This document shows positions 47,830 to 64,000 of a stretch of DNA of 64,000 bases, in pieces (position 1 is the stretch's first letter; each line of letters begins with the position of its first letter). The translations under genes and the position numbers were made by a program. Below the pieces are notes generated by a model. That model saw only the letters and a program-made list of their open reading frames with translations, did not search any database and was not told where the DNA came from. Source of the DNA: Nitrosopumilaceae archaeon (GTDB lineage Archaea > Thermoproteota > Nitrososphaeria > Nitrososphaerales > Nitrosopumilaceae); contig OZ242365.1 in the NCBI GenBank assembly GCA_965208905.1, forward strand, positions 2,080,001 to 2,144,000, written 5' to 3'.

Positions 47830-48028
47830 ACATCCCACACGGTTCGGCGCTTGTGCGTATGTGGTTGGTGGATAACACGTCCTTTGGACAAAAACCATAT
47901 CCGTCGCTTTCTACCATGATTCGTGTCCTCGGAACCTACTAGAACCACCGTGATTGGTTGGGAAGTTGTGTGAGTATGGCATCAACCGAAAAAGAGAGAT
48001 ATGATCCTTAACAGGTAACGTTTCTGCT

Positions 48029-49105
48029 CTAGCCGTGGTCATGGGGAGGTGTGAATGCCAGAGCACCGTTCTTTACAAACCCATAGGCAGCCTTCAGTGA
48101 GGCCCGTACCACATCAATGTTGTTCGGCTCGAACCACTGTTCCACCAACACGATCCCCTCACCGGCGGTCTTGATGGTCTGACCGTTGAAGTCTGTGGTT
48201 TTGATCTCGGCGTTGGATATGCGTGTTATGTCGGTCGCGGCTTCGGGCGAAACAGAGATTAGCGCCATCCCCTTCTTCAACCTGTTCTTGATTATGCCTA
48301 CTATCTCTGCATCTCTGTACGAGAACCCAATCACCAACAACACGTCAACCCTGTCAACCTCCTTCTTGAAACGCTCAAACAGTGAGTGAAACGGCTCATC
48401 ACCGTAGTTTTTCGAGCCTTCGGTGGGGGCGATAACAATATCTTTTTTGCCACCTCTCGGTGCAGGCACGCCGGCTTCCACAATCTGACCGTCAACATCC
48501 TCGTGCCAAAATATGGAGCCGTGTAGTTTTAACAGGCGCATGTAGTTGGTGGCATCGATTGACCACCTGTCTGCCCAAATGAAGATCCCGCGGCCACCCT
48601 CCACGAATCCATTGACAACGCTTAGATTTTTCTTGTAGCAGTACCTCTCCAGCACATTATCGTAGTTGGTCGTAAATACTAGAAATTCATCCGCACTACT
48701 GTCGTTCACAATAGCTCTGACCATATCGTACATCCATACAATCTGATTGTCAACAATCGATTTTATGACGAATGATTCAAACAGAACGTCGCTGATGATG
48801 GACTGAGTATGCCTCAATTCGTCAAGTGTCTGCTTGAACGTGTTGTCGCTACCATGCAGTACGTTAAAAATCGGCTTAATGTTGGGTGTATCGTTGGACA
48901 AGCGTAGCACCCTATCTATCCCATCGTACAATTTCTCGACATCTGAGTAGTCACCTTTGTCGATGATGGTTTTAGTGATTTGACTCATGCCACGCCCGCC
49001 CTTCTCATTGCTGACACGCGTCCGCACACTGTCCATCAACTCTACCGTGGTGGGCAGACCTGCAAACGCCGAGGCCCCGGCTCCGAGAAACAGGGCGGTC
49101 TTCAT
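48029..49105 (-). CDS. SIR2-like (SIR2_2) protein, defence-type NADase candidate
   Basis: LFLGAGAS..AGLP, FTTNYD, LLKLHGS, LLVIGFSYRD. Confidence 0.88.
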   Translation of the reverse strand: MKTALFLGAGASAFAGLPTTVELMDSVRTRVSNEKGGRGMSQITKTIIDKGDYSDVEKLYDGIDRVLRLSNDTPNIKPIFNVLHGSDNTFKQTLDELRHTQSIISDVLFESFVIKSIVDNQIVWMYDMVRAIVNDSSADEFLVFTTNYDNVLERYCYKKNLSVVNGFVEGGRGIFIWADRWSIDATNYMRLLKLHGSIFWHEDVDGQIVEAGVPAPRGGKKDIVIAPTEGSKNYGDEPFHSLFERFKKEVDRVDVLLVIGFSYRDAEIVGIIKNRLKKGMALISVSPEAATDITRISNAEIKTTDFNGQTIKTAGEGIVLVEQWFEPNNIDVVRASLKAAYGFVKNGALAFTPPHDHG

Positions 49106-49147
49106 GTACCATACGGGAGGAATGATGTCATAAATCCTTTTGCGGTC

Positions 49148-49710
49148 TGGGGGGCTGTAACATCTTAGAGGGATGAGGTACGTCTGGTGGGACTGTAACA
49201 AGAGGGGGATGGCCTCACACCAGGGCTGTAAAGTTGACGGGACATAAAGTCAGGGACATGGGATCTTCTCAAGAATAGCACGGGGGTTAAATCTGTGACC
49301 TGACGCACTTTCCCTTCCGAATTATTCAATACTGTGAAAAGGTAATTCTCTTGTGTCGTATTCATCAGCACCATGTCTTACTCCCCCAGAAGGAGACTTT
49401 ACGGGGAATGTATGCGCCCATTATGTGATAACTTTGCAATCCTCGGGGGGCTGTAAAGTTACTGTGTACTAGATGGCACTGTAAAGTTGTGTGCTGGGAT
49501 CAGATCTTCTCAAGGTTCCGGAAAGTTGCAGGAGTGTGGGCCAGAGTAGAAAGCAAGGGAGGTTCTGTGAAATTGGTGGGACGTGGGCTAGGGTGCTACG
49601 AAGCCCGTCACGAACCACGGTTCTGGGAAATCTGCGTGTGATGTGTAATCCTGTCAAAAACGTGTGATGAATCTTCAAGAACATGAGCCGGAGTGGAAAG
49701 ATGGGGCCGG
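49148..49710. repeat. Stack of short IS-end-like motifs
   Basis: GGGCTGTAAAGTT, GGCACTGTAAAGTT, GGTTCTG(T/G)GAAAT and GATCTTCTCAAG units, all in the same orientation. Confidence 0.6.
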
Positions 49711-49719
49711 AGTAGGGCG

Positions 49720-50643
49720 CTAACTTGGTGGCTTGGTTGGTTGGAAGTCTACCTTGAAGTCAGATTGCATTAGGCCAGCAGTCATCACCAGTTTGTTCGC
49801 GTATCGGATGATGTTAGACGGGCCAACATTGGTGAAGACATAAAGTTTCCCGATTTCTCGATAAGTACTAAACAACTTACCAGTGGGATGTTTTGGTTCT
49901 ACATGCAGTAGGTAGTTCCTTGGACCAATACGGATGGGACAATGCTGTGCGGTAAGGTGTCCGTTGTTAATCAACCACTCGGCCACACTACCCAACAGGT
50001 CCACCCATGACTCTAAGGCCTTTTGGCTACCATCTCTGTGTATGAGAATTTTGGGATGACTGGACCCCTTCTTGTAGGTGACATTTTCCAGCACAATCCC
50101 AGGCACATGCCTAATTGGTGGTCTTGTCTCCGGATGCAGCATCTCGTACATCTCATCGATCTTCTTAATTGGCGTGATCGTGTGTCGCGGCATGTTCCCC
50201 AACACAACGACCCGGTGCAGGCGTATGGCCTTAGATATCACCATCCCCTCTGAATCAGTGACATCAAACTCGGCCTCCGGACTCTTTGTTGTGGCGTTGG
50301 CATCATACATCCTCCATTTCCGCCCGTTTGTCAACACACCATATCTTACATTACGCCCCCTAACATAGTCAATTAGTTTATCCGTGTACTTGTCTAAATT
50401 CTCGTCCAACTTCTTGGCCTCGACAATCATGGCCTTGTGCCCAAGGGTGTAGTCAGTCTTGCCACCGGGACCGGTGTTGTCTTCCGGTACCACCTCACTG
50501 GGGTTGGACAAGTCCCAATCCAGTTCGCGCAACAATGGATCAATCAATGCATACCGGGTCATCGTTTCGTTCTTGGAGAGTGCTACCTCATGAACATTGA
50601 TTGTCTGCTGAATCTTCGCAATCACGTCAAGGAACTCCTGCAT
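49720..50643 (-). CDS. HsdR_N-like PD-(D/E)xK nuclease fused to a C-terminal putative DNA-reader domain
   Basis: NETMTRYALIDPLLRELDW, KTDY, IVEAKK, YGVLTNGRKW. Confidence 0.8.
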   Translation of the reverse strand: MQEFLDVIAKIQQTINVHEVALSKNETMTRYALIDPLLRELDWDLSNPSEVVPEDNTGPGGKTDYTLGHKAMIVEAKKLDENLDKYTDKLIDYVRGRNVRYGVLTNGRKWRMYDANATTKSPEAEFDVTDSEGMVISKAIRLHRVVVLGNMPRHTITPIKKIDEMYEMLHPETRPPIRHVPGIVLENVTYKKGSSHPKILIHRDGSQKALESWVDLLGSVAEWLINNGHLTAQHCPIRIGPRNYLLHVEPKHPTGKLFSTYREIGKLYVFTNVGPSNIIRYANKLVMTAGLMQSDFKVDFQPTKPPS

Positions 50644-51059
50644 GGTTCTATGCCTGCCGTACCTGCATATAAGCATGTAATTGTCTGGGGACTGCCACAT
50701 CTACGTCACCTAGGTAACACGCGTCACCTACGGATCTTCTCAAGATGGCTGTATGATCCTGCTGACCTAGCCGAGACTGTATAATTGCTGACCTAGAGTG
50801 GGAATGGGGGTTTTCGTACATCAGGTGTGTGGAGTGGAAATCTAGTGAGATGGAAATTGTACGTTTGGAATGAACATCCCCGACCCCATTGAAGCTAGTT
50901 CCTTAAATGGGATGAGTATGATAGAGTGGTATGGGAATATATTTCGCTGAGGAGGAACTGGTGGTGTCCTTAGAGTCTTACGAAAACCTACACTACTGAT
51001 GAAAACATCTACTCGTACTCAACATTTAGCAGATGAACAGTGCAGAAACACTTTCCCTG

Positions 51060-52691
51060 CTACCTCCAAACACTAACCATTCCAAACGCTTCATTTAGCA
51101 CTCTTTCAATCTCCAATTCATTGGCTTCGCCGCCAGAGCTACTTTCTTGGAGTTTCGACTCAACCAATTCGAGCACGATTTTAGTTTTGGTTTTTCCTAT
51201 AACACGGAAAAGCCCGTTATGATATTTGGTCCCGTAGGCATCCTCAATTGCTTTAATGAGTCCTTTTTTGGGTTGCTCTTGTTTTGCTATTTCATCATCA
51301 GATACGCTTTGTCCATACTTCTTTAGGTGAGAATTTATCAGATTGATTATAGACTCTCGCTCAAAATTGTCTCCTTCAAAGCTGGTGTTCCATATGTGGT
51401 GTTTAAATTCCCCGCCAAATCTCTGTTGTATTCGTCTAAGCTCGGTTTTCCAGTTCAACTCATCATCAGCAATCAAGTATATTGCAATCGAGTCTATGCG
51501 AGCAGATTGAATTATAAAATCAATGTTGTTGGCAATCATGTTGGTTACACCTTTTCTATTAACTATCCTCACAACGTCATCATCAAGACTGATCCCACGT
51601 TTTTTACAAATTTTTTTGATTACCGCCTCTTCCGTTTTACCCTCTACCAAGAGGTAAAGTCTGGTTGAAGTATCCTGTACAAAATACCGAACTATTGCCT
51701 GTTTGGTCTTGTGCGTCTTATAGTCGAATGGTTTCGAATACACGCGCTCTTTCCATTCGGCATTATCAAAGGGCATATTCGGAACACCGGTCTTCCCATC
51801 CAACTCGTGCAGAAACAACGCCAGCATCCGCGCAGCCGTGTAGTATAACTGCGCAGTGTAAGCATCCCCTTTTATTTTCTCTACGACTGATGGTCGCATA
51901 ATTCTGATCAGATCATACCATTCCATTAATGGATCAAGGAAACGTACCTGCGCGTCAAACCGATTAAGAGTACGACGAACTTGTTCTATTGGAACCCCGA
52001 TATCTTCCAAAAGATCGCTGACACTAAAACTGTTTCTCCACTCTAACCACATCTCTTGGAAGCGCTTGATGCCAACGGTAAGAGGGAACGGTATGGAATT
52101 GTAAACGTAAACTGAATAGCGTTCCTCCAATAGCATTAGCATTCCTATATCTTTGATTATATCTAGCTGCGATGAGTTAAACCAGTCGTCTCTCAACATG
52201 TTAGTCTCAACATTGTTCATCACTTGTTTAAGGTCTGATTTAGTGTATGAATCAAAGTATAAAAAGCGAACTTCTTTGAAATGAAATATGTTCTTGACTT
52301 GAAGGATTTGGAATTTGTGATAAAAGAGCAGTTTTTTGTCGCGTTTTAAGCTTTTGGGCTCGGACTTGAAATTACTCCACGGTTCAAAGTCTCCGACCTG
52401 TGGAAGCTCTATATGCCCAGCTGCATAGAATTCCTGGATGGCATCAAGTCCATAATACAGATCTCCACGCCGCTGCTGTTCGGGCAAAACCAGCCGGAAA
52501 GCCGGCTGGAGCCACCCTTCACGTTCAAAGCTTTCCAAATCTTCTTCTCTAATTCTGATCCCATGTTTCTCTAGCAAACGGACGAATCCATGTGGTTGTT
52601 CAAAGTCGCCATGCATGTATGGCCGCATCATTTTTTTCCGGATGTACGGCGAGAGTCCAGCATCCATGTCATGGAGAAGCGTATGAGGCAA
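51060..52691 (-). CDS. Hypothetical protein with C-terminal TOPRIM (OLD-like) domain
   Basis: LYLLVEGKTEE, RKGV, YLIADDE, SFEGDNF; no Walker A motif seen. Confidence 0.72.
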   Translation of the reverse strand: MPHTLLHDMDAGLSPYIRKKMMRPYMHGDFEQPHGFVRLLEKHGIRIREEDLESFEREGWLQPAFRLVLPEQQRRGDLYYGLDAIQEFYAAGHIELPQVGDFEPWSNFKSEPKSLKRDKKLLFYHKFQILQVKNIFHFKEVRFLYFDSYTKSDLKQVMNNVETNMLRDDWFNSSQLDIIKDIGMLMLLEERYSVYVYNSIPFPLTVGIKRFQEMWLEWRNSFSVSDLLEDIGVPIEQVRRTLNRFDAQVRFLDPLMEWYDLIRIMRPSVVEKIKGDAYTAQLYYTAARMLALFLHELDGKTGVPNMPFDNAEWKERVYSKPFDYKTHKTKQAIVRYFVQDTSTRLYLLVEGKTEEAVIKKICKKRGISLDDDVVRIVNRKGVTNMIANNIDFIIQSARIDSIAIYLIADDELNWKTELRRIQQRFGGEFKHHIWNTSFEGDNFERESIINLINSHLKKYGQSVSDDEIAKQEQPKKGLIKAIEDAYGTKYHNGLFRVIGKTKTKIVLELVESKLQESSSGGEANELEIERVLNEAFGMVSVWR

Positions 52692-53062
52692 ATATTTGCT
52701 TCGGACATTGCAGTATCCGAAGATATGATCTGTGGTTGGGAATCATATGTGTGCATAATACTAACCAAAAAGAATGGAAAAACCCTAGCGGATGAAAGCC
52801 CCCGGCCCAATATAGTCAAGAACATGTATCCTGACTTGAAGTTCTGTTTACTTTAATTTAATTTATGCAGTATGTCATCTGGGGGCTTTCACTACAGATG
52901 TATAATTTCTACTCCACACACCTAAACTCTGAGTTATAATTTTCCCAAACTTGTTTAGGTCAGCGTTTCTTCCCTACATGAGAAGGGTGGTGCATGGATA
53001 CGTGGGCGAGAGTGCTGTACGGTAGTGATTGAGTTATAAGAATCTGGTGGTGGGAAATAACC

Positions 53063-53567
53063 ATGTCTGACACCGATTGGCTACCCATCATCTTGGAGGC
53101 TTCTGCTATAGCTGGTGGGCTGATATTCTACGTAAAAAACTGGCAGGCGCGTGATCGCCTGCGGAAGGTACGCTATGCCAACATGTTGATGAATGAATTG
53201 AAAGCAGTATGGGATGCCATCAAGCGTAGAGACCAATGACTACCACGAAGAGTTCTTGGAGCCTTTACCGGATAACGTCTATGATGGGTTCGTCTCATCC
53301 ACCAACCTCTCATACTTCGACAAGGATCTCCAAGAGCACTTACATGATCTGTACATGAACCTCAAGAATTACAACGAGGACGTTTTTCCCGATGAGAATA
53401 CACGTGCGAGCAAGGGTATGGCAATAGACCCGATGGGTTTGTTTGATGACCTATCAGATTCGGTTGAGGAGGCCATCGCCTTGGTCAATGAGTTCCGCCG
53501 GCGCAACAGATCTGCCAAACGCTGGCGCCCACTCCTGAAAGCCATTCATTGGTACTATGATGACTAG
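53063..53567 (+). pseudogene. Frameshifted membrane-anchored hypothetical protein
   Basis: MSDTDWLPIILEASAIAGGLIFY... from 53063 stops near 53240, while the 53214-53567 frame continues plausibly. Confidence 0.45.
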
Positions 53568-53687
53568 TGGATCTATTCTCAAGATCCGCCATGTACCCCA
53601 TGCAACACCATCAGTCATATACCGAAGATGCAACAGTTCCTTCAGTCTAGGCACGTAATACCCACACTAAACAAAAAATAAAAAAAC

Positions 53688-54000
53688 TTACTTTCTCTTA
53701 GCCTTTGTAGCTGCCTCTATGAGGGCCTTCCACTTGTTTGTACCCTCGATATGTACACCTGCCGCCTCCGCGGGCGTCTGACCATTCGGCAACCCCTGAT
53801 GCTGCCGCACATAGTTATGATATGTCTTCAAGCCACTTACTATGGGTGAGTCCTCGCGTTTGAGACCGCGCGTTGCCTCCTCGCGATACCCGAGCGTATT
53901 ACCATTGAATGACTCCATCTAGTTGTTGTGGTGTATGCCATCAAATGCAACATCCTTGATGTGTTCGGTATCCTTATGTGTAAAGTTCTTTGATTCATAC
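53688..54000 (-). pseudogene. C-terminal relic of an IS6-like transposase paralogous to 15856-17109
   Basis: KNFTHKDTEHIKDVAFDGIHHNN*MESFNG...RGLKREDS...TPAEAAG, with an in-frame stop. Confidence 0.88.
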
Positions 54001-54008
54001 TGGGTGCC

Positions 54009-54521
54009 TTGACCATATCTTTTTTTAACCGTAAAATTTTGCTTATCATAGGCGGGATCTCGATAGCCGTCACGGCAGTCGTGGCGACAGAGGTGTACGA
54101 CTACGTGTACTTTGAGGTGCCCATCAAGAACGCCGTACCTTCGGAGGGGTACGCGCATGTCGATCTTGTGCCGGTGGCCCAGACGGTTCATCCGTACACG
54201 ATCGAGGACATCACGCATGATCCCATAAACGATGCCATAACGGTCACCTTCAAGGGAGGCACTCACCCCGTTACGCGGGAGCGCGTGGTTTTTGAGTATG
54301 TTGAGACGTATTCCGTAAACGAGTCGTTTGCTTTCAGATGTGACGAATCAGAGGGCGGATCGTACTTGGTGTTTTACGGGTATCTGAGAGTGGAGAGAAA
54401 GAACGGCACGGACTACATGCGCCTTTTACACTACGACGGGACCACACATGGACCGATGCCGTGCATCTATCCTGACGTGATAATCCACTCAAGGGTATCA
54501 ATCCCCCCAGCAGAGCCTTGA
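54009..54521 (+). CDS. Hypothetical membrane-anchored protein
   Basis: N-terminal TM; 170-aa ORF. Confidence 0.55.
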   Translation: MTISFFNRKILLIIGGISIAVTAVVATEVYDYVYFEVPIKNAVPSEGYAHVDLVPVAQTVHPYTIEDITHDPINDAITVTFKGGTHPVTRERVVFEYVETYSVNESFAFRCDESEGGSYLVFYGYLRVERKNGTDYMRLLHYDGTTHGPMPCIYPDVIIHSRVSIPPAEP

Positions 54522-55016
54522 CCGGTACATAATCGATCTCTTTGATGACCTACGGCGACCCGAGCGCCGGACAAACACTTCATTGGGGTGGACGGCGTGT
54601 AGTGTGTGTGGACGGAGAACTACGAGCAGTACACCACGACGCGCAGGCCGGTCCGTCCGGCTGGCTGTGTAGATGATGTGGCCTCATGCCAGAATAGTCA
54701 GATCTGTTACGTTTAAGGCGCTATGTGGCTTTGGGCTGTAGGTGGTAACACAGTGGGCCCGGCACCCTCGACAACGAACATAATTATGAATCATGTCCTA
54801 CTTCAATGGAATGGGATATTTCGCGCGGCTCTGAAATTCGAGGTACGCGTACGAGATTGTGAAAGAGGGTACATATGTACGGGTTTGTGATTGCGGTGTG
54901 TACTTGACATATTCGAAACCTATATCTGCATTAGTCAAGAAAATGAGGATGGGAGACCTCGAGCACTAAAAGTTATCAAATGTTTATATTTAACAAAAAC
55001 ACGTCACGATAGCATA

Positions 55017-55664
55017 ATGGATCAGTTACATAAAACACTAATCATTGGTTTGATTTCAGTAATACTAATTGCTAATTTAATTTTACTTACAATAAACACC
55101 GAATATTCTTCTAATGCTATAACATGGTCTGCAGTAATAGTTTCAGTGTCAGCTGGCATAATTGTAACATCAATAGTAGATAAGCGTGCATCAGATGCGC
55201 ATAACGAAGTATTACGATCACAAAACAAAATTGCAAAAATTTTAAAGCAGTTAGATGAAACAGACCAAAAACACAATAAAGTGCTAACACATTTAAAGCA
55301 AAGTAAGCTTAGAAACGAAAATTTGGCTAAAAACTCAATAACTGCATCATTAAAGTATATACAATTAATGCTGAATCGTCTAGAATTATCACTAAATAAA
55401 CCAACATTAGAGAAAAAGGAAATGGATCTTATTATCAACGTATTAAGTCATTTAGAATCGCCACTAAATTTAATCGAGCAATCTGTTCCTCAAAGTGGTG
55501 CGGAGTTTAAAAAATATGAGGCAGATATAGAAAATGTGGTAGCTGTATTACGAAAACTAATAATTGCATCAATTGTTGTATCTGATTCAAAGGTCGCTGA
55601 AGTTTTTGAATTAATAAGACATAGTAACAGGAAATTAGAAATATTGCTTAAACAAGTAAGTTAA
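55017..55664 (+). CDS. 2-TM plus coiled-coil hypothetical protein (AT-rich)
   Basis: ATG at 55017 with TTTATATT about 30 nt upstream; two hydrophobic helices, then heptad-like helices. Confidence 0.65.
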   Translation: MDQLHKTLIIGLISVILIANLILLTINTEYSSNAITWSAVIVSVSAGIIVTSIVDKRASDAHNEVLRSQNKIAKILKQLDETDQKHNKVLTHLKQSKLRNENLAKNSITASLKYIQLMLNRLELSLNKPTLEKKEMDLIINVLSHLESPLNLIEQSVPQSGAEFKKYEADIENVVAVLRKLIIASIVVSDSKVAEVFELIRHSNRKLEILLKQVS

Positions 55665-56047
55665 ATATAAGTAGTAATTTTACCTTTTGTATGATGATCA
55701 AGCAATAGAACATTTCTTACCCAAATTCGAGCACCATTAGGATGTAAATATTTTTTTGGTACTCTAAATCTTTCACTAATGCTAATTTCCCAAACATATA
55801 ATATTAAAGAATCATCTAATTCATCTAAACTTACTCTGTGCAAATGAATATTATCTTTTAGCTTTTTCTGATTAATGGGTCCATGCGATGATTGAATTTT
55901 AATTTTACCTAAGATGTTGCCTTTACTAAGAAGATATATTTCAAAGCCAATTTTAGATTTTGGCGCTGGTCTACTACGTAATTCCCACGATTTTTGACCA
56001 TTAATGATAAGATTAGCGTATGGTTGATTTATAATCAGTCCATCCAT
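55661..56047 (-). CDS. ASCH-domain (PUA-like) protein
   Basis: GLIINQPYANLIINGQKSWELRS (GxKxxExR), ILGKI, YVWEI, YLHPNGARIWV. Confidence 0.88.
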   Translation of the reverse strand: MDGLIINQPYANLIINGQKSWELRSRPAPKSKIGFEIYLLSKGNILGKIKIQSSHGPINQKKLKDNIHLHRVSLDELDDSLILYVWEISISERFRVPKKYLHPNGARIWVRNVLLLDHHTKGKITTYI

Positions 56048-56049
56048 GG

Positions 56050-57297
56050 TTAAGGTACTCCATAATTATTGATCCGCTTTTCTAATTGACTGTATTGTCT
56101 TTGTAATATGCTATCATCAATTATTTCTAAATTACATTTGGCAAGTTGAGCTAATGGTGATTTGCCGCCATTAATTTCTAGACACTTTTTTAGGCCAATA
56201 TACATATCCACGGCATGATTTCTTATAACATGGTGCTTTTTTATTAAATTGGCGCAATTATCTCGGTCTAAGAACGTTGGTGCAAGATCAGGATGAATTA
56301 GATATTTCCAAAATTCAACACAATCAATAAGGATTCTAAATGAATTTTTTCTTACGGACTTAAGTTTATTCACTGAGAGTGCCATCACATTATCATTGTA
56401 AGTACGTTCCAGATTCTCACCTTGATTTATTGTATAAAGTGAAAGAATTCGAACAAAACATGCCATGCATAACCCACACATTTTTGAAATTCCTTGTGAG
56501 GTGGAACAGGACCATGTGTGCTTGATTGATTCAGGCTTATTTGCAGCGAGAATAACTTCGGATTTTGTATAGTTAAAAAATGGTGTTTGAATTTCTATTT
56601 TTTGCCCAAAAATGTTTTCAAAAATTTTTGCCCAGCCCGTAATCATGGCCGGGTCTGTTGTTCGTGTAGGCGCAACTCGCATAGATACAGGGTAATTTAT
56701 CATAAATGGGCCATTTTCCGGTATCACAACCTGCCCAATATTGTATTCCGAGGCTAAGCATAACAATGTAGTTAGAAAAACAACTCCTCGCACATGTAAA
56801 AGTGGGATGTCTGTCGCACTCTTTAGCCTTAAATTTGTTTCAACCATCTTGTGATTATTAGGCAAACATTTTTTATGAACATCCCTAGCAACTTTTTGCA
56901 TACGTGAGCTTGTTATCGTATGACTAAGCAGCCCTCTTTTTGTTATATTATTTGGCAGTAGTGGATATGACAAGCTATCTAGACCGCCCGAAAATAAACT
57001 AACAAAATCAAAAGAACTTTCAAATAGTCGCTGTTGTCTATTAGTTTTAGCCATCTTTAAAAATTTGAGTTTTATTTCTCTATCCGTAATTGTTTCATAA
57101 AAAAATTGAAGCTCATCTAAATTCTTTTGAAAGCGTTCGGGTTCTGATACTGGAACCACGACTTTCACAAAATTAGATTGTTTTGACTCTGCATAGTGAA
57201 CACACATGGCTAATTTTTGAAAATCGAGAAGCTCATCAGCAATTAAAAGTTTTATGTGTTTAGGTCTTAGTGAATTTTTTGGATTTTGATTTTTCAT
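56050..57297 (-). CDS. QatC-clade QueC-like PP-loop ATPase
   Basis: SLFSGGLDS; PENG...TRTTDP; PF...TKSE; SC-x7-CGLCMACFVR zinc site; extra N-terminal domain (DFQKLAMCVHYAE...VPVSEP); 415 aa. Confidence 0.85.
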   Translation of the reverse strand: MKNQNPKNSLRPKHIKLLIADELLDFQKLAMCVHYAESKQSNFVKVVVPVSEPERFQKNLDELQFFYETITDREIKLKFLKMAKTNRQQRLFESSFDFVSLFSGGLDSLSYPLLPNNITKRGLLSHTITSSRMQKVARDVHKKCLPNNHKMVETNLRLKSATDIPLLHVRGVVFLTTLLCLASEYNIGQVVIPENGPFMINYPVSMRVAPTRTTDPAMITGWAKIFENIFGQKIEIQTPFFNYTKSEVILAANKPESIKHTWSCSTSQGISKMCGLCMACFVRILSLYTINQGENLERTYNDNVMALSVNKLKSVRKNSFRILIDCVEFWKYLIHPDLAPTFLDRDNCANLIKKHHVIRNHAVDMYIGLKKCLEINGGKSPLAQLAKCNLEIIDDSILQRQYSQLEKRINNYGVP

Positions 57298-57587
57298 TTT
57301 TCTAAATCTGATTTAATATCTGTTAATAAGTCATCTCCAAAATTTTCAGGTTCTAATTTAAGGCGGGCATCTAACTCTTCAATACTGTATTTTTTAATTT
57401 TGTTTACTATTTTACGTGCCAGCTTTTCTGCATCCTTTTCTGCATCTGCTAATAACCTATTACGTTTTATCTGAGTTTTAGGGTTTTCAGTATCGTTAAA
57501 TAATTCTTCTGTTATTTCTTTAGTTGGTTGATAAATAGCGCGTTTGTATAATTTAAAAAAATATTGTTGTTGTTCTTCTGTGAGCAC
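57294..57587 (-). CDS. Small helical hypothetical protein in the QueC-like operon
   Basis: GTG start overlaps the upstream TAG; its TGA overlaps the QueC-like ATG. Confidence 0.7.
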   Translation of the reverse strand: MLTEEQQQYFFKLYKRAIYQPTKEITEELFNDTENPKTQIKRNRLLADAEKDAEKLARKIVNKIKKYSIEELDARLKLEPENFGDDLLTDIKSDLEK

Positions 57588-57934
57588 TAATTTTCACTCC
57601 TTTCAATTAATGTATCATAAATTGCTTGTCGAATAGAATCTTTTTTTGGTAGTGTGAGATTTTGTTTAATATTTTTTGGGATTTTTGTAACAGCATCACC
57701 AGAAGCTTTCTTTATAATTTCTTCAGACTGAGCTTTTGTTTTATACGCAGCTATTCCAGCAGACAATATGCCGACAAGATAATTCGAGTCTTTGCTTTGT
57801 GCTGCTTTTGAGATTATAGCTGCGGCTTGTTTGTAATCTCCTTTATTTATACAATTATCAAGATCGGGTTGAATTTTTCTGACTTGAATTTTTGTATTTC
57901 GTTTTGCACCTTTTCTGCTTGGTTGAGTTCCCAC
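57587..57934 (-). CDS. Small basic protein with MGT- N-terminus (QatB-like substrate candidate)
   Basis: GTG-GGA-ACT-CAA-CCA-AGC; first gene of the operon; TTTATA about 25-30 nt upstream. Confidence 0.7.
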   Translation of the reverse strand: MGTQPSRKGAKRNTKIQVRKIQPDLDNCINKGDYKQAAAIISKAAQSKDSNYLVGILSAGIAAYKTKAQSEEIIKKASGDAVTKIPKNIKQNLTLPKKDSIRQAIYDTLIERSEN

Positions 57935-58120
57935 AATTTTTAGCTTTTATATTCTGTTATAAAGATATCGATAGCCTAAATGGGGCGGACTCCCCCAGAA
58001 TGAGACCAAGCAGAATCGAATGAATCTAAATAAGCTTGACTCTGCCTGTTTAGTGTGCGGCTTCGACCAACCCCCAACATTCGACAGGTGAATGTTCTGG
58101 ATAATCCCCTGTATGATTTA

Positions 58121-58921
58121 TCACCGTCGTTTTAAACGAGCTGGATGCCTGTACTCACGTTTGATTTCGCCGTTGCTTGCCAGACGGCTTTCAATTATCT
58201 CGCAATATCTGGGTTGTATCTCGCAGGTCAGGTAGTTCCTGCCCAAGTTCTTGGCTTGAACCACTTCCGAGCCGCTACCGCCAAATAGTACGAACACCGT
58301 ATCGCCCGGAACAGTGCAAGATTTGATGAGCAGCTCTGAGAGTGTCTCTGGTATCTGGCACGGGTGGTTTGTCTTTTGGCGAGACACGTTCTTAACCAAG
58401 TTTAAATTTATCCAAGAATAGAGCATGCGTCTCAGATGTCCCTGCCTTATTCGCTCCTTAATGCGCACATCATCCGGGTTCTGATATGGCTGTGCCACCT
58501 GTTCTTTGTAAAAGCGGTTGTTCCTAGATTTGGTGGCGTGGAGGATAGAGCGGTGGGCGGTGTTGAACCGGCGCCTGGAGTGGCCCACGTTGGTGTTATA
58601 GATCCAAACATAGTCGTGCACTGAGTAGACGTTCTCGTCAAGATAACTTACGCACAGATACGCGTTTTGCTTGGGATAGTTGATGAAAAACAGGTTACCG
58701 TCAGGCTGCAAGACGCGCAGGCACTCTTGCGCCAAATCCACGTACCATTTCACGTACTCATCCCAAGAAGACGTAAAGGCAGTTCCCTGATATTTGATGC
58801 CAACGTTGTAGTCTGGATCGCCATATATCATATCAATGGAATCATCCGGCAATCTCCTTAGCGTCGCCATTACGTCCTCGTTGACGACGCGGTTGCGGTA
58901 TTTTTTAGGTAGTGTGGTCAT
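58121..58921 (-). CDS. Site-specific DNA methyltransferase (beta class, DPDY variant)
   Basis: IYGDPDYN, HPCQIP, LFGGSGSE. Confidence 0.85.
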   Translation of the reverse strand: MTTLPKKYRNRVVNEDVMATLRRLPDDSIDMIYGDPDYNVGIKYQGTAFTSSWDEYVKWYVDLAQECLRVLQPDGNLFFINYPKQNAYLCVSYLDENVYSVHDYVWIYNTNVGHSRRRFNTAHRSILHATKSRNNRFYKEQVAQPYQNPDDVRIKERIRQGHLRRMLYSWINLNLVKNVSRQKTNHPCQIPETLSELLIKSCTVPGDTVFVLFGGSGSEVVQAKNLGRNYLTCEIQPRYCEIIESRLASNGEIKREYRHPARLKRR

Positions 58922-58923
58922 CG

Positions 58924-59697
58924 CTACACCAGCACGTACTCGGCATTACGCCTGAGCACTATAGAACCGGGATCATGAGGGTCTTTGAACGTGTACAGAT
59001 ACAGACGTATCTTATTGCCGTGGCGCAGCAGGTAGCAGCACTCTATTGAATCGGCTTGCAGGTTATCTATCTTGTCTGCATAGTACCGATACGGGTGAAA
59101 AAGTTGAAAAACGTTAAAGTCGTGCGGTTCGCCGTTTTTTGCCTCGAATATGATTATCTGGCCTTGGAATTCCGTGGTGAGGTCAATCTCAAGTTGCAGT
59201 TTATTGCATTGAATGGTATCACCGCCTATGCTATAGTCAAACGTGGCAAACGTTCGGTGAGCGCCATAGACTTTCGGTGATGCGGTTATGTCCCTGTACA
59301 GGAAATCATGTATGATGCGCTGGTTGTATCCCACCGACAGGATGTTGCTCTCGCTGGTGTTCGTGTTGTCCAGTATTCCCGGCCGGTGGTACCACTGGAA
59401 CCTGTCATTGGCCGATACGGCTTCAAACTTATGGTAGCCGATATCAATGCCACGCACAAACTTGTGCATGCCGCGCCCCAAATGCACTACAAATACGTCG
59501 TCTGCTACCAACACATCGGGCAGCCTTGTCGTGCTGTCCAACTTGGTAACGTCATACTGATTGCTAAACTCAACTTTAGTGGACACGGCCTTGACATCTT
59601 TGTTGCTAAAAACAAAGTCACGCTTGGACTTGCACGCATCGTACAGCTTGGCAACCACCACGCCTTTTCTGCCTATGCGCTGTTGTACCATTGTCAA
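58924..59697 (-). CDS. PD-(D/E)xK restriction-endonuclease-like protein
   Basis: TSESNIL, QLEIDL...IFEAKN...FQLFHPYRYY; directly upstream of the MTase. Confidence 0.75.
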   Translation of the reverse strand: MTMVQQRIGRKGVVVAKLYDACKSKRDFVFSNKDVKAVSTKVEFSNQYDVTKLDSTTRLPDVLVADDVFVVHLGRGMHKFVRGIDIGYHKFEAVSANDRFQWYHRPGILDNTNTSESNILSVGYNQRIIHDFLYRDITASPKVYGAHRTFATFDYSIGGDTIQCNKLQLEIDLTTEFQGQIIIFEAKNGEPHDFNVFQLFHPYRYYADKIDNLQADSIECCYLLRHGNKIRLYLYTFKDPHDPGSIVLRRNAEYVLV

Positions 59698-59794
59698 TGC
59701 TGCTCCGTTACGTGCCAGATATGCGTAGGACGGTAGGTATGGCTCAACCGCATGCGAACTCGCATCTGTTACTGATTTTTATGTCATGCGTTCA

Positions 59795-59960
59795 CCGGTT
59801 CTGGTAACAAATCGAGACATGGGGATTCTCCGAACCCGCTGTTAACTTTCGGGACATGAGGCTGGACGGCGCCTCGGCGGATCTTCTCCAAATTGGCCCC
59901 GCTGGATGCTGTTAACTTTCGGGACATGGCCAGATCGCAGGCCCCAACCATCGGGACAAC
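59795..59960. repeat. Stack of short IS-end-like motifs
   Basis: GCTGTTAACTTTCGGGACATG twice (about 59838 and 59908), GGTTCTGG and GGATCTTCTCC. Confidence 0.6.
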
Positions 59961-59967
59961 GTGACGC

Positions 59968-60318
59968 TCAGTACAAGGCCGCCGTCTTCTCCATCCATGC
60001 CCGGATGGACTTCACGCTCTCGCCTCTGCCCACGTACTTGCCGTCCAGCAGGTCGGCCCCCTCGTGGACGTAGCTGCCCACCTTGTCCACCACGAAGTGC
60101 ACCGCCTCACCCTCCGGACCGGCCGTACGCCAGACGCTCACGCTGCACGGGGCCGCCGACGCCGCATGCTCGGCCGCCTTGCCGTAACCGTCGGGCGTCT
60201 TGAGGAACTGTAAAGAACTCGTGACCTGGCGTATAGTGTAAAGCGCGTGACCTAAGGAGGCCAGAGATATGGTTATATAAACAAAATCAAGTATGTTAGA
60301 AAACATATCTAAAACCAA
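59968..60318 (-). CDS. Hypothetical protein, possibly chimeric (AT-rich 5' part, GC-rich 3' part)
   Basis: 116-aa ORF with an abrupt composition change near 60210. Confidence 0.3.
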   Translation of the reverse strand: MVLDMFSNILDFVYITISLASLGHALYTIRQVTSSLQFLKTPDGYGKAAEHAASAAPCSVSVWRTAGPEGEAVHFVVDKVGSYVHEGADLLDGKYVGRGESVKSIRAWMEKTAALY

Positions 60319-60387
60319 CCAACTTTAAAAAGAACAATAGTCAACAATCGATATGGTTGACTTCCGGGCAGGTGTCGTGACTTAGTA

Positions 60388-63300
60388 TTGGATGCCGACA
60401 GTTTTGGCAAAACACTTCAACACCTTCGTACCATTTGTAATGATGAGGGTAACACCAAGGGCAGCCTCTTCGAGAAGTTGGTGCGGTCGTTTCTAAAGAC
60501 TGATAATCTGTACGCCGACAGGTTTGTTGAAGTATACGCGTGGAAGGACTACCCGGGACGTAACGGGCGGGGTGACTTTGGCGTTGATTTGGTCGGTGTT
60601 GAGCAGGATGGCCAACTCTGTGCGATACAATGCAAGTTCTTTGACAAGACAACCCTCACCAAACGCAGCATAGACAGTTTCTTGGAGGCTGGTTCGCGCT
60701 CGGAGTTTGACTCCATGATGCTGGTGTATGTGGGTGGTGGCTATGGCAAAAACGTACAGGATGCGTTGGAGGGTCATGGGTGTAAGGTGTTGAACTTCGA
60801 GTCACTGTCCGAGAGTAACGTGGAGTGGCCTGATTTGGCCGCTGGCCTGACTGACATCAAGCCTAGAAAGGCACGCCCGTTGTGGGACCACCAGAAGGAG
60901 GCGATGAGTAATGTTATATCCAAACTGGAAAACAACAACCGTGGACAGTTGATAATGGCGTGTGGGACGGGTAAGACATTAACATCTTTACGGCTGGCCG
61001 AAAAAACAGTGGGTGAGGGCGGTCTTGTGTTGTATGCAGTACCATCCATATCACTAATGCGACAGGTGATACGTAACTGGGCCGGGGACCGAACCCTACA
61101 GCATGGATATGTGGGTGTTTGCTCCGACAACACGGTGTCCCGTGGCCAGACCGACATACCAATCATAGAGATGGAGATTGGTGTGAGTACAGATGAGGAT
61201 CGTATAGCCTCGGTGATGCGCCGGGACTCCTCTAAAATGACCGTTATATTCACAACATACCAGAGTATGGAGGTTATTGAGAAGGCCCAGAAGTTGTCCG
61301 GGGAACCATTCGACTTGGTATTATGTGATGAGGCTCACCGTACCACCGGCGTAGAGAAGGGGTCGGCATTCACTATCATACATGACGATGAGAAGATACA
61401 GGCGCGCAAACGAATCTACATGACAGCCACACCAAAAATATACAAGCGCGCGGTCAAGACAAAAGCCGCCAATGAGGATGTGGTATTATATTCTATGGAT
61501 GATGATTCGGTCGAGTCCAGGAGTGTATTTGGACCGGTAATGTTTAGACTGAGTTTCTCAGATGCCATAGACGCGAAACTACTGACCGACTATGATGTGT
61601 TGACGTTGGGTGTCTCTGAGGAATATGGTGGTAAGATACTACAAAAGATTGTGGAAACGACTGGTGATGATGGCGATATTAACCTGACGGACGCGGCCCG
61701 TATGGCTGGATTGTACCGCGTGTTGGAGCGGCCAGACCCAGACAATGACGTGTTGCCACTCCAAACCGCCATAGCGTATACCAACCGTATATCTGACTCA
61801 AAGCGGTTCGCCAACAGTTTCAAGAATCTTATGATGGAGCCTGCCGGTAGTGTAGAGTTTGCTTGTGATGCCGAACATGTAGACAGTACACAAAACTCCA
61901 CCGCACGGGATAAGGCGATGCAGTGGCTACGAGATTCTGACCAGGACTCCAATGAATGTCGTGTGGTGTCTAACGCCAAATGTTTGTCTGAGGGTGTGGA
62001 CGTACCGGCACTAAGTGCGATCACGTTCTTAAACCCCAAGTCGTCCGAGATCGACATAATACAGGCCATCGGTAGGGTGATGCGGAAGCATAAAGGTAAG
62101 GAGCGCGGTTATGTGATTATACCGTTGGGGATACCACCGGACACCGAGCCTGAGAAAATACTGAATAATGAAAAGTCATTTGGTGTGGTGTGGAATGTGT
62201 TGAGGGCGTTGCGGTCACATGATTCACGGCTGGACGTAGAGGTTAATACAGCAGATTTGAAGAAACAGTTGCCTAAACGCATAAAGTTCATTGGGATAGA
62301 TAGAGAGGGAAAACGCGTCGACAATGAGGAGGGAGGAAAATCATTCTCATTGGGTGAATTGGATGTGCCAGCCGATGCATTATATTCTCGTATAGTGGAG
62401 GAGGTAGGCGACAGGCAATATCTGGCGCGGTGGGCGAACGATGTCGCAGCCGTGGTGTCCCGTATACAAGAGCGTATTGGGGTAGTGGTTGCGGACGGTC
62501 CTGCGCGAGACAAATTCGGTGCGTACATGGTGGGTCTGCGCGATATAATACACGATACAATATCAGAGTCCGAGGGTATTGGGATGCTTGCCCAACACAT
62601 GGTGACCAGACGGATATTCGGTGCTATGTTTGGGACAGATAACTTTGCGCAATCCAATCCAGTGTCGGCTGCGCTCGACGCGGTACTGAATGAGTTGCGT
62701 GCGCATGGTCTGGATACTGAGCTACGTGATTTGGAAAAGTTCTACAACTCCATAGAGTTGCGTGTCGCTGGGTTGGACTCACATGATGCCCGGCAGCGCG
62801 TTATATCTGAACTATACGGGACATTCTTCAAGAAGGCATTTTCCAAGATGGCTGACCGACTGGGGATAGTGTATACACCAACTGAAGTAGTAGATTTCAT
62901 ACTGCGGTCAGTTGACCATGTGCTGCGGGAGAACTTTGGAAGGGGACTGACCGACGAAGGGGTGAATGTGATAGACCCATTCACAGGTGCCGGTACGTTC
63001 ATTGCGCGTATGATGTCCAAGGATTTGGACTTGATACGGGATGAGGATATTGAGCGAAAGTATGAATACGAGATATTCGCCAACGAGATTGTTTTACTGG
63101 CGTATTATATCGCGGCGGTCAACTGCGAGTCCATGTATGGCCAGCGTACCGGGTCTTTCAAGCAGTTCGAGGGACTGTCATTTACGGATACGTTCAGCCC
63201 TGGTAACTTGGATGAGCACACCGGTGACGTGATGGCCGGGCCCAAGAAACGCATCAGGAGGCAGCGGGAGGCGAAGATTACGTGTATAGTGGGCAATCCA

Positions 63301-64000
63301 CCCTATTCGGCGGGGCAAAAGTCGGCTAATGAGGATAACAAGAACGTAAAATACCCTGCCATAGAGGGTCGTGTCAAGGACACATACATTAGGATGGCAC
63401 CTAAAGGGAATCAGGTATCATTATACAACTCATACATTAAGGCTCTACGGCAGGCATCTGACCGTATAGGTGAGTCTGGTGTGATAGGGTTCATCACACC
63501 CTCTGCATATATCACCGGAATTGCCGAGGCCGGAATACGTGCCTGTCTGTATGAGGAGTTTACTGATGTGTATTGTTTGGATTTACTTGGTCAAAGAGGA
63601 ATGAAAAATAATGGTAATAGTATATTTGGGAATAGTGGTAATGAAGGCGGTATAACTGTTGGAGTTGCCATAACCATACTGGTTAAGAACCCACGAAAGA
63701 GTGGATGTACTATCCATTACAGCAAACTACCAACAAACGATTTTTACTGTGAGGAAAAACGTGCTAGGGTAAAGCAGTTGGGCCTTGTGGCCAACATAAC
63801 AGACTGGCAACCAATAACCCCAAACAGGTACCACGACTGGTTAGACCAGCGTGGTGAGGCAGACGAATCATGGCAGAAGTATTTGCCCATTGGTAGTAAA
63901 GATGCCAAACGCGGGAAAACTAACAAGGTTATGTTCAGTACATATTCGCGTGGACTTGCCACAGCTCGAGATGGCTGGGTCTACAACACGTCAAGAACAA
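60388..64000 (+). CDS. Type ISP (LlaGI/LlaBIII-like) single-polypeptide restriction-modification enzyme; runs off the right edge
   Basis: One frame from TTG at 60388: Mrr-like GVDLV...AIQCKF, MACGTGKT, CDEAHRT, MTATP, CLSEGVDVP, QAIGRVMRK, GIVYTP, DPFTGAGTF, GNPPY; missing from the ORF track because it has no stop in the window. Confidence 0.92.
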   Translation, partial: MDADSFGKTLQHLRTICNDEGNTKGSLFEKLVRSFLKTDNLYADRFVEVYAWKDYPGRNGRGDFGVDLVGVEQDGQLCAIQCKFFDKTTLTKRSIDSFLEAGSRSEFDSMMLVYVGGGYGKNVQDALEGHGCKVLNFESLSESNVEWPDLAAGLTDIKPRKARPLWDHQKEAMSNVISKLENNNRGQLIMACGTGKTLTSLRLAEKTVGEGGLVLYAVPSISLMRQVIRNWAGDRTLQHGYVGVCSDNTVSRGQTDIPIIEMEIGVSTDEDRIASVMRRDSSKMTVIFTTYQSMEVIEKAQKLSGEPFDLVLCDEAHRTTGVEKGSAFTIIHDDEKIQARKRIYMTATPKIYKRAVKTKAANEDVVLYSMDDDSVESRSVFGPVMFRLSFSDAIDAKLLTDYDVLTLGVSEEYGGKILQKIVETTGDDGDINLTDAARMAGLYRVLERPDPDNDVLPLQTAIAYTNRISDSKRFANSFKNLMMEPAGSVEFACDAEHVDSTQNSTARDKAMQWLRDSDQDSNECRVVSNAKCLSEGVDVPALSAITFLNPKSSEIDIIQAIGRVMRKHKGKERGYVIIPLGIPPDTEPEKILNNEKSFGVVWNVLRALRSHDSRLDVEVNTADLKKQLPKRIKFIGIDREGKRVDNEEGGKSFSLGELDVPADALYSRIVEEVGDRQYLARWANDVAAVVSRIQERIGVVVADGPARDKFGAYMVGLRDIIHDTISESEGIGMLAQHMVTRRIFGAMFGTDNFAQSNPVSAALDAVLNELRAHGLDTELRDLEKFYNSIELRVAGLDSHDARQRVISELYGTFFKKAFSKMADRLGIVYTPTEVVDFILRSVDHVLRENFGRGLTDEGVNVIDPFTGAGTFIARMMSKDLDLIRDEDIERKYEYEIFANEIVLLAYYIAAVNCESMYGQRTGSFKQFEGLSFTDTFSPGNLDEHTGDVMAGPKKRIRRQREAKITCIVGNPPYSAGQKSANEDNKNVKYPAIEGRVKDTYIRMAPKGNQVSLYNSYIKALRQASDRIGESGVIGFITPSAYITGIAEAGIRACLYEEFTDVYCLDLLGQRGMKNNGNSIFGNSGNEGGITVGVAITILVKNPRKSGCTIHYSKLPTNDFYCEEKRARVKQLGLVANITDWQPITPNRYHDWLDQRGEADESWQKYLPIGSKDAKRGKTNKVMFSTYSRGLATARDGWVYNTSRT

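Follow-up and report, generated by a model that had tools for sequence, protein, structure and literature searches.

A candidate five-gene defence module in a Nitrosopumilaceae archaeon, with a QatC-like enzyme, a two-piece Met-Gly partner and an ASCH protein

Layout of the locus

The subject of this study is a group of five genes in a stretch of 64,000 nt from a Nitrosopumilaceae archaeon (GCA_965208905.1, contig OZ242365.1, positions 2,080,001-2,144,000, forward strand), referred to here as the window, in which all positions are counted unless another sequence is named. Four of the genes follow one another on the minus strand and encode a protein of 115 amino acids (aa) that starts with Met-Gly (the MG protein), a 97-aa helical protein, a 415-aa PP-loop enzyme assigned below to the QatC clade, and a 128-aa protein with an ASCH domain. 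The fifth, on the plus strand, converges on them and encodes a 215-aa protein with two predicted transmembrane (TM) helices (Table 1).

An initial annotation, made from the sequence alone, had described four tightly coupled minus-strand genes in a sharply AT-rich block among restriction-modification (RM), SIR2 and TOPRIM genes, and this description stands. According to the list of open reading frames (ORFs) and a reading of the sequence, the GTG start of the 97-aa gene overlaps the TAG stop of the preceding MG-protein gene (TAGTG), the next junction is an ATGA overlap, and 2 nt separate the enzyme gene from the ASCH gene. The G+C fraction is 0.29-0.39 in six 500-nt intervals from 55000 to 57999, with flanking values of 0.52 and 0.49 just upstream and 0.48 just downstream; the block stands at 0.30 against 0.49. 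The domain scans, which also identified the RM, SIR2 and TOPRIM neighbours, found no KAP ATPase, TatD, CD-NTase or TGT domain in the neighbours covered, in agreement with the reported lack of a QatA ATPase and of TatD, CD-NTase and TGT-like genes at the locus. The picture of a "minimal" four-gene module had to be revised, as it overlooked the convergent 2-TM gene, which is conserved together with the other four and whose stop overlaps that of the ASCH gene by 4 nt. The AT-rich block begins near 55000 and therefore takes in this fifth gene as well.

Table 1. Features of the module and of its surroundings in the window
Feature	Position	Strand	Remarks
MG protein, 115 aa	57587..57934	-	GTG start, begins MGTQPSRKG; first half of two-piece helical domain; putative substrate
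97-aa helical protein	57294..57587	-	GTG start; second half of putative substrate domain
415-aa PP-loop enzyme, QatC clade	56050..57297	-	ORF list; QatC matches
128-aa ASCH-domain protein, GKER type	55661..56047	-	Pfam ASCH
215-aa 2-TM coiled-coil-like protein	55017..55664	+	Convergent; ORF opens at TTG 54891, likely start ATG 55017
TTTATAA TATA-like box	57957..57963	-	Centred 26 nt upstream of the GTG start of the MG-protein gene
SIR2_2 protein	48029..49201	-	Pfam and PADLOC scans
HSDR_N/MmeI_N-like protein, 326 aa	49720..50700	-	Domain scans
DUF3226/OLD-type TOPRIM protein, 543 aa	51060..52691	-	Domain scans; without ATPase match
Type II RM pair	58121..59697	-	Directly upstream of the module; N6/N4 methylase and DUF6996/DUF6997 nuclease
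Type ISP RM enzyme, large single chain	60388-63999, open at window end	+	Mrr_cat_2, ResIII/helicase, ISP coupler, N6 methylase
Short ORF resembling the C-terminal end of a DDE transposase	53688-53918	-	Resemblance read by eye

The enzyme groups with QatC

The 415-aa enzyme carries the motifs SGGLDS (residues 103-108), R170/F174, PENG (193-196), T211-R-T213 and PTRTTDP, and four cysteines (C264, C274, C277 and C280). In an alignment of 48 family sequences, SGGLDS, PENG...PTRTTDP and the four cysteines are invariant; S103, G104, G105, D107, S108, R170 and F174, which align with QatC, are the same in 48 of 48, and so are T211 and T213. The Pfam QueC match is confined to residues 138-284 (4e-11), which leaves extra parts at both ends. 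The motifs and the N-terminal domain named by the initial annotation are thus all present, together with a C-terminal extension. In a comparison of motifs, SGGLDS, the R...F pair, P(x)4TK and the four cysteines are shared, and PENG and T-R-T are common to the enzyme and QatC, archaeal QueC having YPDC in their place. The Thr pair is the counterpart of T278/T280 of Pseudomonas aeruginosa QatC, which are reported as QatC-specific, essential active-site residues (PMC13279940; PMC13639016) that replace the Tyr/Asp nucleobase site of QueC and Cap9 (PMC13279940; motif definitions also in PMC13329287).

Searches with models and structures point in the same direction. With PADLOC, the QatC model matches residues 43-321 at 1e-22 as compared with 1.8e-8 for the QueC model, although the score of 78.7 bits lies below the 146-652 bits of ten other QatC-type proteins. 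Against the QueC model TIGR00364 the enzyme reaches 27.7 bits, below the cut-off of 150.3. A profile of the 48 members, searched against the PDB sequences, matched only QatC chains (9vlk, 2.1e-20; 9zee, 2.8e-11) and no QueC chain at E <= 0.01, and its alignment places PTRTTDP on the STRTTHP of QatC. The AlphaFold2 (AF2) model of the enzyme has a mean predicted local distance difference test score (pLDDT) of 89.2 and a predicted TM-score (pTM) of 0.90. With this model, Foldseek gave QatC as the top matches (9y01_B and 9y02_B, E 4.6e-14, TM-scores 0.62 and 0.60) over 399 columns of 415, whereas QueC (7.4e-5) and Cap9 (4.1e-4, the fifth match) aligned over the core of about 200 columns only. Among plasmids, the nearest relatives by tblastn are annotated qatC genes, at no more than 27% identity.

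A quick IQ-TREE analysis covered 53 rows, among them 25 of the 48 family rows. In it the enzyme family is monophyletic (SH-aLRT 98) and has 21 QatC-type rows (support 83) as its sister group, with seven archaeal QueC proteins as the outgroup (support 100). The family thus appears as a deep-branching archaeal sister clade of the QatC sampled in this tree, and the enzyme does not cluster with canonical QueC. Pfam and NCBI label family members "7-cyano-7-deazaguanine synthase". The genome has a canonical QueC of its own elsewhere (G000:C1:322349-322984, 161 bits), as well as a QueD-type PTPS and a TGT away from the module; no KAP NTPase was found in the whole genome, and its one TatD lies about 1 Mb from the module. 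Judged by sequence and modelled fold, the enzyme belongs with QatC and not with the QueC of the tRNA pathway, as the initial annotation had proposed.

Among the other QatC-type proteins, P0055, P0057-P0061 and P0063 (620-681 aa) make up a separate clade with about 250 extra C-terminal residues; in P0055, P0057 and P0059 the PADLOC QatC model spans only about the first 370 residues.

Recurrence and distribution of the five genes

A search of 5.8 billion clustered proteins returned 54 close relatives of the enzyme (E <= 1.5e-51), whose full-length members mostly have 413-432 aa; below these, scores fall to E 1.9e-9. Pattern scans for enzyme loci gave two in 185,579 species genomes and four in a metagenome collection, while none of 31 pattern matches in viral contigs was confirmed. 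By profile search, the enzyme family is present in 2 of 401 genomes of the phylum, that of the window included. The distribution of the family is patchy.

Gene context is available for eight loci (the window, L001-L006 and L013), of which all but L005 were read; apart from the window's own, three hold the complete set, two hold part of it and one is decayed. In L001, L013 and L003, with enzymes of 58%, 47% and 38% identity to that of the window, the five genes have the same order and orientation. The short contig L004 carries a cut MG-type gene, present by its end, the small gene and the enzyme gene, and an ASCH gene of which only the start is included. L006 has the enzyme gene's end, then an ASCH gene for 128 aa, and the final part of an ORF that converges on them. 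The ASCH gene lies directly downstream of the enzyme gene in all six readable loci. An all-versus-all BLASTP of ORFs of at least 60 aa (window positions 48000-62000 against L001, L003 and L013) found only the five genes in common; in L003 only the enzyme and ASCH pass 1e-5 in pairwise BLASTP, the other three being linked by position, alignments and profile. The flanks differ from locus to locus and are again of defence or mobile type, with type I RM and NERD genes in L003 and, in L013, a phage-type integrase 1.3 kb away and a HEPN protein.

The combination of an MG ORF, a QueC-type gene and an ASCH gene, for which the initial annotation had proposed a search, recurs at three further loci, with the membrane gene as an addition. 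The locus does not appear to be a decayed qatABCD: the same set is intact elsewhere, and neither qatA nor qatD occurs in the neighbours of the window's module or in L001, L003 and L013. A decayed copy was met in L002, a Nitrosopumilus record (positions 5075-6704), where a single 215-aa ORF unites the two putative substrate genes, a frameshift leaves the enzyme gene in at least two frames, no ASCH gene follows and transposase-like ORFs lie nearby. The block is AT-rich, the family patchy (2 of 401 genomes) and the flanks unrelated, and the module is read as a rare, horizontally acquired island.

A more distant QueC-core relative was seen in two unannotated Listeria phage records (OR848142.1 and OR846725.1), at 26.6% identity over enzyme residues 99-287, or 46% of the query.

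The partner in two pieces

The MG protein begins with the tail MGTQPSRKGAKR..., after which helices follow, and no family in Pfam, PADLOC or NCBIfam covers it. When 1.84 billion representatives were searched with a profile, 19 proteins were returned, 18 of which were read as sequences. All 10 representatives that hold the N-terminus start with M-G-(T/S/N)-Q, the rest starting further in or being cut; among aligned full-length relatives, all 15 have M1, G2 and Q4, and the remainder of the tail varies. The start codons in five loci are GTG, ATG, GTG, ATG and TTG. Because M-G-(T/S/N)-Q is kept under all three codons, GTG 57934 is taken as the true start of the gene, and with it the MGTQPSRKG N-terminus proposed at the outset. 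In all five loci compared, an A+T-rich, TATA-like box precedes the start codon by about 20-35 nt, a position that would fit a leaderless archaeal transcript.

Homologues of the 97-aa protein occupy the same position in L001, L013, L003 and L004. The word-index homologue search retrieved only four MG proteins and, for the 97-aa protein, only itself, and the alignment of the latter has five rows. In L002 the fused ORF matches the MG protein and then, colinearly, the 97-aa protein, and the two are joined in frame at the same point in another, distinct sequence (P0081). As modelled by AF2 (pLDDT 88.3, pTM 0.83), the fusion is one helical domain of nine helices, in which the tail is unplaced (pLDDT <50 at residues 8-17) and the first helix starts at residue 17; no usable ESM Atlas match was found for it. 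The natural fusions, the single-domain fold of the fusion and the tight interface modelled between the separate chains (see below) support the view that the 115-aa and 97-aa proteins are two halves of one unit.

The initial annotation had suggested, more specifically, a QatB split over these two ORFs. The two halves stand, but homology to QatB was not detected, and "split QatB homologue" was dropped in favour of "QatB analogue", as neither sequence nor fold searches found a link. At E<=1, PADLOC has no match for the fused protein, for three MG proteins or for two of three small proteins, the third giving one unrelated CARF match (0.019); for the window's own MG protein it has none at E<=0.01, and for the 97-aa protein only the unrelated PDC-M67B (0.0033). 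The NCBIfam QatB model NF041924 matches neither protein, with a control QatB at 253 bits, and no QatB match was found in the whole genome. Alignment of the partner with six QatB proteins by hhalign gave a probability of 0.1, in what is a weak test (half gaps, 144 match columns). With Foldseek the partner had no PDB match at E<=0.001, although the library includes the QatB-QatC entry 9y01, and the best Z-score in a wide VIA-align comparison was 5.9, to unrelated helical proteins, helical bundles being hard to match.

Modelled three-chain complex

A complex was predicted from three chains: the enzyme, the 97-aa protein and, as the partner to be scored, the MG protein lacking Met1. The interface score ipSAE was 0.94, 0.94 and 0.93, as against 0.00, 0.00 and 0.60 for the controls; the 0.60 control had the enzyme replaced, so that its score reflects the pair of MG and 97-aa proteins alone. 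The tool was calibrated on 80 solved complexes, of which 58 reached the mark, and on 110 mismatched pairs, of which 2 did. Contacts agreed to at least 93% between runs, and the partner had a pLDDT of at least 84. The confident interface takes in partner residues 2-8 and, on the enzyme, residues 194, 198-221 (the PENG...TRTT loop) and 315-355 (the C-terminal extension), the interface residues of the tail being listed chain by chain. The expected errors are 0.4-0.6 Å where the 97-aa protein packs in the model on MG residues 52-60 and 100-108. QatC holds QatB in crystal structures by its counterparts of these enzyme elements, a Var3-type loop and a C-terminal extension (PMC13279940). The model thus supports, without demonstrating, the binding of the three chains, with residues 2-8 of the tail in the predicted interface.

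ASCH protein and membrane protein

The assignment of the 128-aa protein as ASCH holds, with 29.5 bits against a Pfam cut-off of 21.2 (PF04266). Its GxKxxExR octapeptide reads GQKSWELR, and all five linked copies have K19, E22 and R24 unchanged. Among solved structures, its nearest relative is Thermus TTHA0113 (1wk2/2dp9, E ~5e-14). TthASCH (2DP9) hydrolyses N4-acetylcytidine and needs Lys23 and Glu26 for its activity on tRNA (bioRxiv 10.64898/2026.02.27.708502); K19 and E22 align with these two residues. The linked ASCH group scores 216 bits against at most 124 bits for all other copies in the 401 genomes, and it was found in no genome besides the two that carry the enzyme. An ASCH clade specific to the module was considered and rejected, as 69 of the 401 genomes have a relative. 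A housekeeping-type ASCH paralogue is present in 55 of 56 genomes of the host family. The window's genome has a second ASCH gene at G000:C1:679318-679653; open frames, those of relatives included, are of about 152-163 aa.

In the 215-aa membrane protein, hydropathy suggests two N-terminal TM helices (about residues 6-28 and 35-55), followed by a long helical, coiled-coil-like tail. It has no family above cut-off in Pfam and none in PADLOC or NCBIfam; its best scores in the ESM Atlas are 0.85, to unnamed clusters. Its homologues in L001, L013 and L003 are likewise convergent and overlap at the stop.

Genomic surroundings

The surroundings of the module are a defence island (Table 1). In the type II RM pair, the methylase matches the PADLOC model MTase_II at 3.7e-108, and the DUF6996/DUF6997 protein a PADLOC type II nuclease model at 1.4e-14. 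The transposase-like short ORF, which lies between the OLD-type TOPRIM gene and the module, has no Pfam match at E<=0.001. DNA of the window is contained in four DNA sequencing runs, all from one sample of one study, and no RNA run is listed.

Relation to known systems

The closest comparison is with QatABCD. Shared features are the PP-loop, the R...F adenine contacts, PENG, T-R-T, P(x)4TK, the four cysteines, both extensions and the full-length fold of the enzyme; a gene just upstream whose product starts M-G-T and has a flexible tail before a helical body; and, in the modelled complex, the use of a Var3-type loop and the C-terminal extension, as in the QatB crystals (PMC13279940). The M-G-T-S start of QatB and the M-G-(T/S/N)-Q of the MG proteins are similar without being identical. 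The differences are no less clear. The host is an archaeon, and the enzyme belongs to a sister clade on a long stem, below the NCBI cut-off for QatC. The partner is split over two genes, lacks the P16/W18 motif of QatB and has a tail of about 16 residues, in contrast to 30-90 in QatB (PMC13279940). An ASCH protein takes the place of the TatD nuclease QatD, and an opposite-strand 2-TM coiled-coil protein that of the KAP ATPase QatA.

With Cap9 and CdnD of type IV CBASS (cyclic oligonucleotide-based antiphage signalling system) the module shares a QueC-family enzyme, an M-G partner and the PP-loop chemistry, and action on the Gly2 amine has been shown there (PMC13279940, PMC13329287). Cap9, however, has about 185 aa and the Tyr/Asp site of QueC, in contrast to 415 aa and a Thr/Thr site here, and among the neighbours scanned the locus has no CD-NTase, TGT-like Cap10 or cyclic-nucleotide effector. 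Canonical QueC has the same Rossmann-like PP-loop core fold, SGGxDS and Zn-binding cysteines, but is about 220-240 aa long, with YPDC, VPxRN and queD/queE neighbours, none of which is found at the module. Finally, TthASCH/TTHA0113 and the YqfB-type amidohydrolases resemble the module's ASCH protein in their domain, in GxKxxExR and in the Lys/Glu pair (bioRxiv 10.64898/2026.02.27.708502). Unlike it, they stand alone and remove N4-acetyl groups from cytidine or tRNA, whereas the module's protein is a distinct sub-branch adjoining a QatC-like gene.

Proposed mechanism and its alternatives

The five genes are best read as a horizontally acquired defence-island module, a deep-branching archaeal variant of Qat with an antiviral function, to which we give a probability of roughly 0.6; that its core is an enzyme and substrate pair like QatBC is considered probable. 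In the proposed mechanism, the QatC-clade enzyme would bind a helical domain formed by two chains, the MG protein and the 97-aa protein. After removal of Met1, the free tail of the MG protein would place Gly2 in the active site. The enzyme would adenylate a carboxylate with ATP, most likely 7-carboxy-7-deazaguanine (CDG) from the archaeosine pathway of the host, and couple it as an amide to the amine of Gly2. Supply of the substrate is possible, since the genome has a canonical QueC, a QueD-type PTPS and a TGT elsewhere. The ASCH protein, in the operon place of QatD, might then bind or hydrolyse the nucleobase-amide N-terminus by means of its PUA-like pocket and Lys/Glu pair, and the convergent 2-TM coiled-coil protein may serve as sensor or effector at the membrane. 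In this scheme the chemistry, what the ASCH and membrane proteins do and the antiviral function are all inferred. The particular role given to ASCH, reading or cleaving the N-terminal amide, is put forward as a tentative suggestion. A wider circuit, in which the enzyme adds a deazapurine to Gly2 and ASCH recognises or cleaves the amide and thereby sets the state of a defence-executing membrane protein, is regarded as doubtful.

Published work on relatives offers parallels. QatBC alone defends against some phages, and a G2D exchange abolishes defence (PMC13279940). In the relatives Gly2 and the PP-loop are essential and Met1 is removed (PMC13279940, PMC13376578, PMC13639016). An NDG-modified GTSKAY peptide of QatB was detected in E. 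coli by liquid chromatography-tandem mass spectrometry, and the tail of QatB binds QatD (PMC13639016).

Several observations weigh against the proposal. The enzyme reaches 90.6 bits with the NCBIfam QatC model NF041925, far below its cut-off of 280 (control Delftia QatC, 547 bits), and its family sits on a long stem (1.85), for which the tree tool gave a long-branch warning. The partner has no likeness to QatB detectable in sequence or modelled fold. The linkage of the five genes rests on eight loci, as compared with 54 members of the enzyme family. Closer stand-alone archaeal copies of ASCH occur in ordinary contexts, because of which the tie of ASCH to a modified N-terminus is positional only. 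The complex run used its own alignments, unlike the calibration, and as QatBC structures are public, the prediction may have drawn on them for the enzyme side. Moreover, the QatC reaction has not been reconstituted in vitro, and the change from Tyr/Asp to Thr led the authors of the QatC study to suspect another substrate (PMC13279940).

The last two points would also fit an enzyme that makes a free small molecule (a deazapurine, another carboxamide or a nitrile) with the MG and 97-aa proteins as scaffolds or regulators, given that the Thr-Thr site is unlike the CDG-binding Tyr/Asp of QueC and Cap9 (PMC13279940) and that ASCH relatives act on free N4-acyl nucleosides and on tRNA (bioRxiv 10.64898/2026.02.27.708502). 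Under such a scheme, the invariance of M-G-(T/S/N)-Q in a tail that otherwise varies would be hard to place, as would the presence of tail residues 2-8, together with the TRTT loop, in the predicted interface; with the modified QatB peptide in E. coli (PMC13639016) and the effect of G2D (PMC13279940) added, a free product seems quite improbable. It is also conceivable that the same QatC-type modification of the N-terminus takes place outside antiviral defence, in an addiction or toxin-antitoxin-like cassette of a mobile island or as a regulatory switch on the membrane protein, carried along with defence islands. A foreign, AT-rich and patchy block, with an integrase 1.3 kb away in L013, would suit a cassette of this kind; the convergent, stop-overlapping membrane gene recalls toxin/antitoxin layouts, and four of the five proteins have no defence-specific domain in Pfam, PADLOC or NCBIfam. 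Nevertheless, QatC and Cap9, which alone among the enzyme's relatives have been characterised, work in anti-phage systems (PMC13279940, PMC13329287), the flanks of three independent loci hold RM, NERD, HEPN, SIR2 and OLD-type genes, and abortive-infection systems often resemble toxin-antitoxin pairs, so that the two readings overlap; a purely non-antiviral role is judged unlikely.

Almost no weight is given to a decayed remnant of qatABCD or a redundant paralogue of the tRNA-pathway QueC. QatA and QatD are missing and the databases use the name of a 7-cyano-7-deazaguanine synthase, but all five ORFs are intact and the set recurs in L001, L013 and L003 at 38-58% enzyme identity, unlike the truly decayed copy L002 with its frameshifted enzyme gene. 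The enzyme falls far short of the TIGR00364 cut-off (27.7 against 150.3 bits) and lacks YPDC, and the genome keeps its 161-bit canonical QueC elsewhere. The preferred reading thus remains that of an archaeal Qat variant.

Outlook

Among the matches listed, titles and abstracts on QatC and deazaguanine, on ASCH and deazaguanine, and on QatC since 2024 described no QatC-ASCH pair and no archaeal Qat variant. ASCH as a term was absent from the Qat and QueC papers searched for it, although the supplementary tables of PMC13329287 may list the neighbours of the cluster; this network study of the QueC family left three small, almost exclusively archaeal clusters (7, 8 and 10) unanalysed. A core without QatA and QatD is less novel in itself, because QatBC is already sufficient against some phages (PMC13279940). 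The core idea has been published for bacteria; the replacement of all accessory parts, together with an ASCH protein of amidase type, makes it easier to approach the question of what the modification does.

The module keeps the active-site signature of QatC and swaps all else: the putative substrate is split and unrelated in sequence, an ASCH protein of amidohydrolase lineage stands in for a nuclease and a membrane protein for the KAP ATPase. This argues that the conserved core of such systems is a QatC-type ligase plus an M-G tail, with downstream parts that can be exchanged. The effect of the N-terminal modification of QatB and the exact reaction of QatC are open questions in the 2026 Qat papers.

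The module offers a candidate reader or eraser of a nucleobase-protein amide. If the circuit of writer and eraser or reader were true, its ASCH protein would be the first known example of an enzyme that reads or removes deazaguanylation on proteins, and the module would provide a simpler system for asking what modification of the QatB type does. To our knowledge, few immune systems have been described in ammonia-oxidising archaea, and the five genes add a candidate to them.

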